UHGV virus genome: UHGV-0272930
Direction: 5' to 3' (one strand)
Source of the DNA: a virus
DNA length: 11,061 nucleotides
Shown piece by piece: positions 6,587-8,413 of the stretch. The notes below the pieces were generated by a model, which was not told where the DNA came from, made no database searches, and worked only from the letters and a program-made list of their open reading frames with translations. Position 1 is the stretch's first letter; the number at the start of each line of letters is the position of its first letter. Position numbers and translations under genes: made by a program.

Positions 6587-8413
6587 TTACTCACCAATAA
6601 CGATATTAACGAATGCTTCAGAATGAGCAAGTGCAATATCTGAGTAATCCCATACGCGGTAAACGATAGTGTTACTTGAACGATAAGTAGTATCGTCAAA
6701 ATCCACTTCCTGTCCTTCCCAATTTGCGATAATTACATTACTGAAATCACCAATTAGGATCTCACCATCTGCAACGAATTCAGAAACAACTACCTGTACT
6801 TCATCTGCTAACCACATAGCTTCACTACGATAGCCTTCAACCATCGCTTTAGCGGCGGTGTTATCAAGTACGGCAATCTGACGTAAAGTAGAAAGAGTCT
6901 TGGCATTCATCACGGCTTTCGCAGCTCGAACATTCACGTTAGCTTGTGCCAGTTGAGCAACAGCTTTTTGGACATCTTCAAGAGTGATAGAACCCGCAGT
7001 AGCAACGTTCAGTACTGGAGCAGCCGCAACGATTTTATCCATTACGTTTTGTTCCAAGCCCTGAGCCGCATAACGCATTAACTCAGACTGTACGAATGTT
7101 TCAATATTTGGAGCAGTAAGAATTGCAGTTTTACTTAGTGGAATAGCACCACCGAATGCTTTTGGTGTTAGGGTAACTTTAGTGAAGTTAGCAATAGAAT
7201 CATCTTGTGCTTCTGCTTCGCCGTAGAATTTAAATACCGGAGCTACACCATTAGCTTTAGGAATGGAAAGATTACCACGACCAGCCAAGCCTGAATAAAC
7301 AGTAGTATTTAGTTCACCAAGAGCAGATAGCTTTAATAGCTCTGGAATATATTGGTCTTGTAGATCATCTGCGACTACACCAGCAGCCGTAGTAGTATTA
7401 GTTGAAGGTACTACAGCACGTACATAACCATTCTTACCGAACTCATAACCTTCAAGAGAGGTTTTATCACCGGCTTTGATAGCACGTAGCATATCCTTTA
7501 ATAGATTTTTATCCATCGATTTGATTTCCTTATCATGATTAGGATTGTTTTTAATGTCATTCAATTGACGTTTGAAATCGGTCACGGTAATTCCTTTACC
7601 AATGGCATCCGATACATCAATATTAAGTACTTTACCGAGTGCTTCTAATTCGCGTACACGTTCAGTATCATCAGTACTATTTATAATTTCCGGTTCTTCA
7701 CCTTGTACTTTGTTGAGTAAGTCAGGACGTTTAGAAAGAATATCTAAAAGTTCTTCATCACTTAGATCGCGTTTAACTTCATCTACGTGTTCTGCTACTT
7801 CTTCAACTTCGTCTTTAACTTCCTGTTCGGTAGCGTCTACTGTCGTTTCAATTTCGCTATCGTTATTTTTTTCTTCCATGAATTGATCCTTTTGAATTGT
7901 TTCACCTGCTTTATTTAGTGAATCAATTTCAATATCGGATTCCATTGAACGGCCTACGCCTACAGAAGCATCTGCTGGTACTGTAACTAAGCTAATTTCA
8001 TAGATTTCATAATCGGAAACGTAGATATTATTTCCAGAAATGTAGTAATCATTAATGTTATATCCAATACTGATATGTGTTAGTACGCCTTCCTGAATCA
8101 TTACCCATTCATCATTAGCGGTAGTACTAATACGTAGCGTTGCACGTCCTACACGGTCGGCGTCCATATGTGCAGATACAACAGCACCAATGAGATCATC
8201 ACGATTATGATTAAAGAGTACTGCACCATTTTGATTAAGACGGCGTAGGTCTGCGTTATCGGAACCGCATAGAAGGATTTCATTATAGATTTCACCATTG
8301 ATTTCACGCTCTACTGGTGTTTCTGAGCAAAACGCTACATCGATAGTTCGCGATTCTGTATTAATCGCCTGTAGGGGTATCGTTAGTTCCCTCTTCTGGT
8401 TTTTGATTTCCAT
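6587..8413 (-). CDS. Fused prohead protease (HK97 / S78-type), acidic linker and HK97-fold major capsid protein in one polypeptide
   Basis: 608 aa. N-terminal 160 residues carry S78-like motifs ([35 protein letters not shown]). Residues around 180-260 are strongly acidic and helix-prone ([34 protein letters not shown]...), like a scaffold or delta domain. The C-terminal 300 residues look like a phage major capsid protein. AAGGAAG Shine-Dalgarno before the ATG at 8413. Confidence 0.8.

Follow-up and report, generated by a model that had tools for sequence, protein, structure and literature searches.

The 11,061-nucleotide (nt) stretch of the virus genome UHGV-0272930 that was analysed, here called the window, contains on its minus strand (6587–8413) a gene in which a prohead protease, a scaffold-like linker and a major capsid protein are encoded as one polypeptide of 608 amino acids (aa). 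With a probability of roughly 0.58, this is a PHROG 617-type protease-scaffold-capsid gene, equivalent to HK97 gp4 and gp5 joined, which is also read from internal starts and is located in a defective, IS3-interrupted prophage of Escherichia coli. The nucleotide signals described below tip the balance slightly towards three nested products from one gene, where internal ribosome-binding sites (RBSs) would give the bulk of the free capsid and scaffold-capsid proteins, and the full-length product would supply a small dose of tethered protease. What is new is not the fused gene itself but a comparison of more than 120 diverse homologs, which points to nested internal initiation.

The open reading frame (ORF) consists of 608 codons, starts with ATG and contains no internal stop, and its predicted product has a mass of 66.7 kDa. 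The Pfam profile search that the preliminary description had proposed found both domains, Peptidase_S78 (PF04586) at aa 61–150 with 33.1 bits against a cut-off of 21, and Phage_capsid (PF05065) at aa 346–604 with 65.6 bits. Its observation that a protease, an acidic linker and an HK97-fold capsid domain share one frame is correct, as confirmed by the uninterrupted ORF and the two Pfam domains, and the assignment of the domains is firm. The profile phrog_617 ("major head protein") matches aa 2–603 over profile positions 5–620 of 626 (E = 6e-81); because it covers the protein end to end, the whole fused architecture is an already modelled family. Another PHROG, phrog_4523, bears the name "major head and protease protein". 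The AlphaFold model of the 608-aa protein, which was based on an alignment of 35 homologs, predicts a beta-rich domain at aa 16–143, a disordered segment of low confidence at aa 143–217, helices at aa 219–236, 248–263, 268–272, 277–289 and 304–314, a disordered stretch at aa 315–353, and an HK97 fold at aa 354–608, which is predicted with confidence.

The main candidate for an internal start is Met300 (7514–7531 including its upstream motif), where the ATG at 7514–7516 is preceded at a spacing of 10 nt by a Shine-Dalgarno (SD)-like AAGGA at 7527–7531, in the context GATAAGGAAATCAAATCG-ATG. Initiation at this codon would give a product of 309 aa and 33.2 kDa. The pairing with the anti-SD sequence is better at Met300 than at any other in-frame ATG, with −6.2 kcal/mol against −5.5 kcal/mol at the annotated start, and the real genes of the window share this type of RBS, with pairing free energies (dG) of −5.5 to −7.9 (the W-like gene, for example, has GATAAGGAAATCAA-ATG). 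Each of the 32 distinct ORFs of the close, enterobacterial clade (30–100% identity) has Met300, with AAGGA(A/T) located 7–10 nt before it, and no other methionine column is conserved in 90% or more of the sequences. As the members of the clade are related, these numbers do not represent independent events, although AAGGA is retained in at least six different local contexts, and the peptide encoded around the site varies (HDKEIKS, NVKENK, NIKDDE, TFKEEIQ and NKKEIRT).

The motif is formed by the codons AAG GAA of Lys295-Glu296. The Lys295 codon is AAG in 25 of the 25 sequences in its alignment column, which is the sole one of 22 conserved lysine columns to reach 100% AAG, compared with 32% overall; the lysine columns nearby are almost all AAA. 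When Lys-Asp/Glu pairs are compared within the same genes, AAG is used in 29/29 cases at the Met300 site, versus 25 cases of AAG and 80 of AAA elsewhere (24% AAG). The least structured mRNA of the whole gene, as the mean of 29 homologs, is located at codons 281–291, just upstream of Met300.

A second candidate start lies closer to the protease domain, at Met179 (7877–7891), where AAGGA at 7887–7891 precedes the ATG at 7877–7879 in the context AAAGGATCAATTC-ATG; its product would have 430 aa and 46.9 kDa. In the close clade, the post-protease methionine has an SD-like site in 67% of cases, compared with 11% of control positions. In the distant clade (~25% identity), a methionine occurs within 60 aa past the protease domain in 94 of 96 ORFs, at a median of +26, and an SD dG of −5.5 or below is found at 61% of these sites versus 15% of the linker codon positions, with a median percentile of 0.93 for the SD signal (Wilcoxon p = 6e-13). 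These counts, too, come from related sequences and lack phylogenetic independence. The corresponding start in phage R4C reads GGAGGACGCA-ATG. The start signal of Met179 is weaker than that of Met300, but the post-protease signal appears to be family-wide. The search for an RBS and a start codon within the gene, ahead of the capsid domain, which had been suggested earlier, was thus positive at both Met300 and Met179, and the 1:1 protease:capsid ratio that had been offered as the default is therefore probably not what occurs, given that the internal start signals are conserved.

If the gene were expressed as an obligate single polypeptide, only the 608-aa precursor would be made, the ratio would be 1:1, and the N-terminal parts would be digested and expelled after assembly. 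Such an arrangement agrees with the one uninterrupted frame, which is conserved everywhere, and with the papers on such genes, which treat the product as a single multidomain protein. It is also physically possible, as some 415 N-terminal parts of 340 aa each would, by our own rough estimate, take up about half of the interior of a T=7 prohead. However, it leaves unexplained why AAGGA-N7–10-ATG is kept at synonymous sites in all 32 members of the clade, why SD-like sites are enriched about fourfold at the first post-protease methionine throughout the family, and why mRNA structure is lowest just upstream of Met300. We consider this explanation rather unlikely.

The protease domain occupies aa 1–155 (7949–8413), with a folded core at aa 16–143. 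In the hhalign alignment, the catalytic residues H65 and S114 of HK97 gp4 fall on H69 (8207–8209) and S115 (8069–8071), and both residues are invariant in 35 homologs. The Foldseek search with the full-length model returned capsid matches only, and a second model of aa 1–160 was used for the protease; its predicted fold is of the assemblin/T4 gp21-like type. A sequence search of the PDB found no solved relative of the protease, and the protease relatives came from the fold search only. Taken together, aa 1–155 are assigned as an S78 serine protease domain with the catalytic residues H69 and S115, and proteolysis of the capsid precursor is predicted. The S78 match, with its modest score, spans only profile positions 50–149 of 165, as might be the case if the N-terminal domain were a degenerate, inactive protease serving as scaffold or cargo only, with a host enzyme or some other phage protease doing the processing. 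The window, which is incomplete, shows no further protease gene, and the inactive domain is regarded as very unlikely.

The acidic linker extends over aa 156–245 (7679–7948), where 33% of the residues are Asp or Glu and the net charge is −21. It is of variable length, its alignment contains many indels, the predicted local distance difference test score (pLDDT) of the model is below 50 over aa 143–217, and Pfam gave no match in the linker. The linker probably acts as a tether, which is mostly disordered by prediction. PF25209, which occurs in relatives, was considered as a linker domain and rejected, as it represents a second capsid family. The linker is followed by a conserved helical block at aa 246–299 (7517–7678), a putative scaffold core resembling a delta domain, in which helices are predicted over aa 248–289 and R252, E255, L256, G260, V262, V267, A270, G274, F280, K281 and R282 are invariant.

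The capsid domain with the HK97 fold is located at aa 346–608 (6590–7378) and is followed by the stop codon at 6587–6589. Its sequence matches 8gta_A in the PDB (E = 3e-10), and its modelled structure was matched by Foldseek to 8GTA, 1OHG and 2FRP (HK97) at a probability of 1.00. The HK97 cross-link residue K169 lies opposite Q403 in an alignment of low confidence (hhalign probability of 46%), which may mean that no chainmail cross-links are formed; the K169–N356 isopeptide is not a family-wide requirement.

Processing of the precursor during assembly, which had been taken as a consequence of the fusion, is implied by a comparison with R4C, where gene 006 (gp6) encodes 629 aa and the deposited capsid chain 8GTA is exactly its last 268 aa. 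The virion protein of this relative therefore lacks about 360 N-terminal residues, with the caveat that the start of 8GTA may be the first ordered residue instead of the true N-terminus. The chain begins at G362, after "...SQNTGTATA", and the aligned stretch of the present protein is "STNTTTAAG" at aa 335–343. Following the protease fold, a motif V-G-[VI]-G-R-[SA], present here as V-G-V-G-R-S at aa 151–156 (7946–7963), falls in a region predicted to be disordered. R155 is conserved in 33/33 sequences of the close clade and 96/97 of the far clade, and G152 and G154 are nearly invariant. Its conservation and predicted disorder make it a candidate for autocleavage, and VGVGR|S is proposed as the release site, with a cut after R155. 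A candidate maturation site, R332-A333, is conserved in the close clade only (27/33) and lies in the leader and N-arm at aa 300–345 (7379–7516), which includes a modelled helix; across the clades, where the alignment of this region is unreliable, a common cleavage motif at the maturation site was not established. Without the leader and N-arm, the mature capsid protein would have a mass of about 29 kDa.

In the proposed mechanism, each capsid domain joining the procapsid shell would carry the covalently linked protease and scaffold inside. The HK97 protease is targeted by its C-terminal tail; because the covalent link would bring the protease inside, a separate targeting tail would be unnecessary here. 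The protease would remove everything N-terminal of about residue 333–345, with candidate cuts after R155 and R332, and would leave the mature coat protein (about 29 kDa), as in R4C. The in-frame internal starts would also be used, mainly Met300 and more weakly Met179, so that most capsid subunits would lack the protease from the outset, and the relative rates of initiation would determine the ratio of protease to capsid.

The gene corresponds to HK97 gp4 and gp5 (delta domain and capsid) in its protease family, its catalytic His and Ser and its capsid fold, and in HK97 as well the protease removes an N-terminal scaffold-like part. The two HK97 genes are adjacent but separate, whereas the link is covalent here. 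The phages of the R4C/VP882 type are closer in architecture, with an S78 protease, a linker or scaffold and an HK97-fold capsid in about 600–630 aa, the same neighbouring genes, and VGVGR[SA] after the protease domain in both; they differ in that the identity is only 25–30% and that the AAGGA-ATG of Met300 is an extra feature of the enterobacterial clade. Gp5 of Pseudomonas phage MD8 likewise contains a protease, a scaffold and a capsid protein in one 693-aa ORF of a lambdoid head module. Its protease is of the ClpP/lambda-gpC-like type and not of the S78 type, which indicates that a fusion of this kind arose independently.

Nested in-frame protease/scaffold genes are established for lambda, for herpes simplex virus 1 (HSV-1) and, by ribosome profiling, for the archaeal virus HFTV1. 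In lambda C/Nu3, HSV-1 UL26/UL26.5 and HFTV1 gp17/gp17.5, a long protease form is accompanied by a more abundant 3'-coterminal in-frame product, an arrangement that is suggested here by sequence. The nested product of those systems is the scaffold alone, with a separate capsid gene, whereas here it would include the capsid protein. If the nested reading is true, the expression logic of UL26/UL26.5 and lambda C/Nu3 would be extended to the capsid protein and would be general in a large phage family. The stoichiometry puzzle of protease-capsid fusions would then have a simple answer, like that of lambda, the herpesviruses and the archaeal virus, and one or two products would be overlooked by pipelines that annotate a single "major capsid protein".

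Several points weigh against internal initiation and processing as proposed. The Met300 site was sought in the distant clade, to which R4C and VP882 belong, and was absent; the sequences there carry the motif "ADIG[LM]S..E..[FY]S[FL]xRA" at the corresponding position, and a strong SD-like site was found in one sequence only, so that the post-protease signal is the sole start signal of that clade. In the literature searched, no paper on internal initiation in protease-capsid fusions was found, and the internal products of the fusion family are predictions from nucleotide signals. An internal SD-like motif could have other roles, and Lys-Glu/Asp could be retained for protein reasons. The product of Met300, which is without most of the scaffold-like region, could assemble only together with longer forms. 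The cleavage sites are conjectures drawn from conservation, and in a defective prophage no gene product need be expressed.

The fused architecture in itself is common and already described, and is an ordinary finding. The assembly index lists the identical protein in 190 blocks, and 113 contigs from E. coli were seen to carry it; its name at NCBI is "phage major capsid protein [Escherichia coli]". All 120 of the homologs listed, at 44–99% identity, fall in its length class, and both Pfam domains are recorded for nearly all of them; they come from E. coli, Shigella, Enterobacter, Kosakonia, Citrobacter, Salmonella, Klebsiella and others. When 1.84 billion cluster representatives were searched, 4480 matches were obtained, 1964 of them at E ≤ 1e-10, and nearly all of the best 150 have 570–680 aa. 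In scans of genomes and viral contigs, fused ORFs of 570–746 aa were found across several bacterial phyla, in Proteobacteria, Verrucomicrobiota, Gemmatimonas, Cloacimonadota, Dehalococcoidales and others, and a single frame spans both domains in 141 fetched loci. The same gene is present in the cultured phages R4C, VP882, DCP80 and the Rhodobacter phages RcRhea, RcCronus and RcSaxon. Comparable fused genes have been described in Agrobacterium phage Miki and its relatives, in RcGTA-like prophages and in the Rhodobacter cluster RcC, and Francisella phage KIRK has an S78 and Phage_capsid gene adjoining a lambda-type portal. The expectation that such fusions are uncommon is not borne out by the 1964 matches at E ≤ 1e-10 and the fused length of nearly all of the best 150.

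An artefact or pseudogene, in which a sequencing error or recent mutation erased the stop between a protease gene and a capsid gene, could be imagined from HK97, where these genes are 2 nt apart and a small change could join them. However, the identical protein comes from 113 contigs of many samples, the fused ORF recurs in the fetched loci and in nearly all of the top cluster representatives, and PHROG 617 models the whole length. The sequencing error that the preliminary description had named as a possible objection is ruled out by the identical copies and the end-to-end coverage, and the probability of the artefact as a whole is negligible.

Some candidates were rejected. P0183, a stand-alone capsid protein of 309 aa with an apparent start exactly at the Met300 equivalent, was considered as a natural split gene and turned out to be a frameshifted copy; in its 1.5-kb contig, the frameshift is located about 15–20 codons downstream of the Met300 equivalent, and the upstream frame runs on as "...MQDSILKSLIREARGE". 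A preprint on the cyclic oligonucleotide-based antiphage signaling system (CBASS) and a paper on an Stx2 phage, both matched by keyword, are about other fusions.

The portal gene (8361–9869, minus strand) is of the lambda family (PF05136) and the terminase fragment of the gpA type, and a 107-aa protein weakly matches the Pfam family Phage_attach. The order of terminase, W-like gene, lambda-family portal and fusion gene is common to R4C, VP882 and DCP80, and in 115 of 137 related loci, including 69 of the 87 at less than 32% identity, the gene immediately upstream of the fusion gene is a portal homolog. Because of this shared order and pairing, the earlier view of the head block as a mosaic of HK97-like and lambda-like parts is weak; the portal and the fusion gene are part of an old co-inherited module and not a recent patchwork. 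The last 53 nt of the portal gene (8361–8413) are also the first 53 nt of the fusion gene, read in a different frame. The Lys7 codon of the fusion gene, which lies within this overlap, is AAG in 15 of 16 homologs, which fits a dual-coding constraint. In the record of Escherichia phage DCP80 (PQ671644.1, 1.7–7.8 kb; locus L011), a lambda-type terminase, portal and fusion module is located at the left end of a 141-kb genome classed as T4-like Tevenvirinae, which suggests a chimeric assembly or a misclassification.

The prophage in the window is defective and can neither make tails nor package DNA; the capsid gene is therefore most likely a relic in this genome. Positions 1–140 and 10923–11061 are IS3 termini, 98–100% identical to E. 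coli IS3; one copy breaks the J-like tail-tip gene and the other breaks the gene of the large terminase (TerL), of which only the last 119 aa are left in the ORF at 10412–10771 (minus strand). In comparison with three more intact loci having the identical capsid protein (L002, L004 and L006), a deletion of 5.2 kb has its junction at 5337–5339 and has removed the genes of the major tail protein and its chaperones (compare L002, 13078–18279). The 367-aa ORF at 4743–5846 (minus strand) is a chimera of this deletion, in which the start of a 946-aa protein (phrog_158, major-tail-like) is joined to the C-terminus of the 736-aa tape-measure protein of the intact relatives.

The same deletion is present in several assemblies (L001, L005 and L007), as would be expected of a shortened element selected as a capsid-only or satellite-like island, such as a capsid-forming phage-inducible chromosomal island (cf-PICI) or an element like a gene transfer agent (GTA). 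The IS3 copies that break the large terminase and tail-tip genes and the existence of intact versions with the same capsid protein are against selection and in favor of decay, and clonal spread accounts for the recurrence of the deletion; such an island is exceedingly unlikely.

In the intact relatives, the gene of the 946-aa protein (12568–15408 in L002) is located at an unusual position, after the head-tail connector genes and before that of the major tail protein. The 946-aa protein has an N-terminus resembling a major tail protein and a C-terminal Peptidase_S74 domain (an intramolecular chaperone), and may be a neck or collar fibre. The sole plus-strand gene of the window, at 4097–4735, encodes a predicted membrane protein, and its copy in related prophages carries DUF6216; it has the tape-measure remnant on one side and the distal tail protein gene on the other, has the lowest guanine-cytosine content of the window (31%), and may be a moron. 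The 156-aa ORF listed with a TTG start at 5864–6334 (minus strand) is more likely a 130-aa gene starting from the ATG at 6256, which has GAGGA upstream (dG of −5.8), and the relatives call it as 130 aa. Among the matches listed from complete E. coli genomes, the sole DNA match other than IS3 is 14EC007, with 76% identity over window positions 140–3208, spanning the tail-tip gene, the DUF6950 gene and adjacent genes; the 113 contigs with the exact capsid protein are mostly from draft assemblies.
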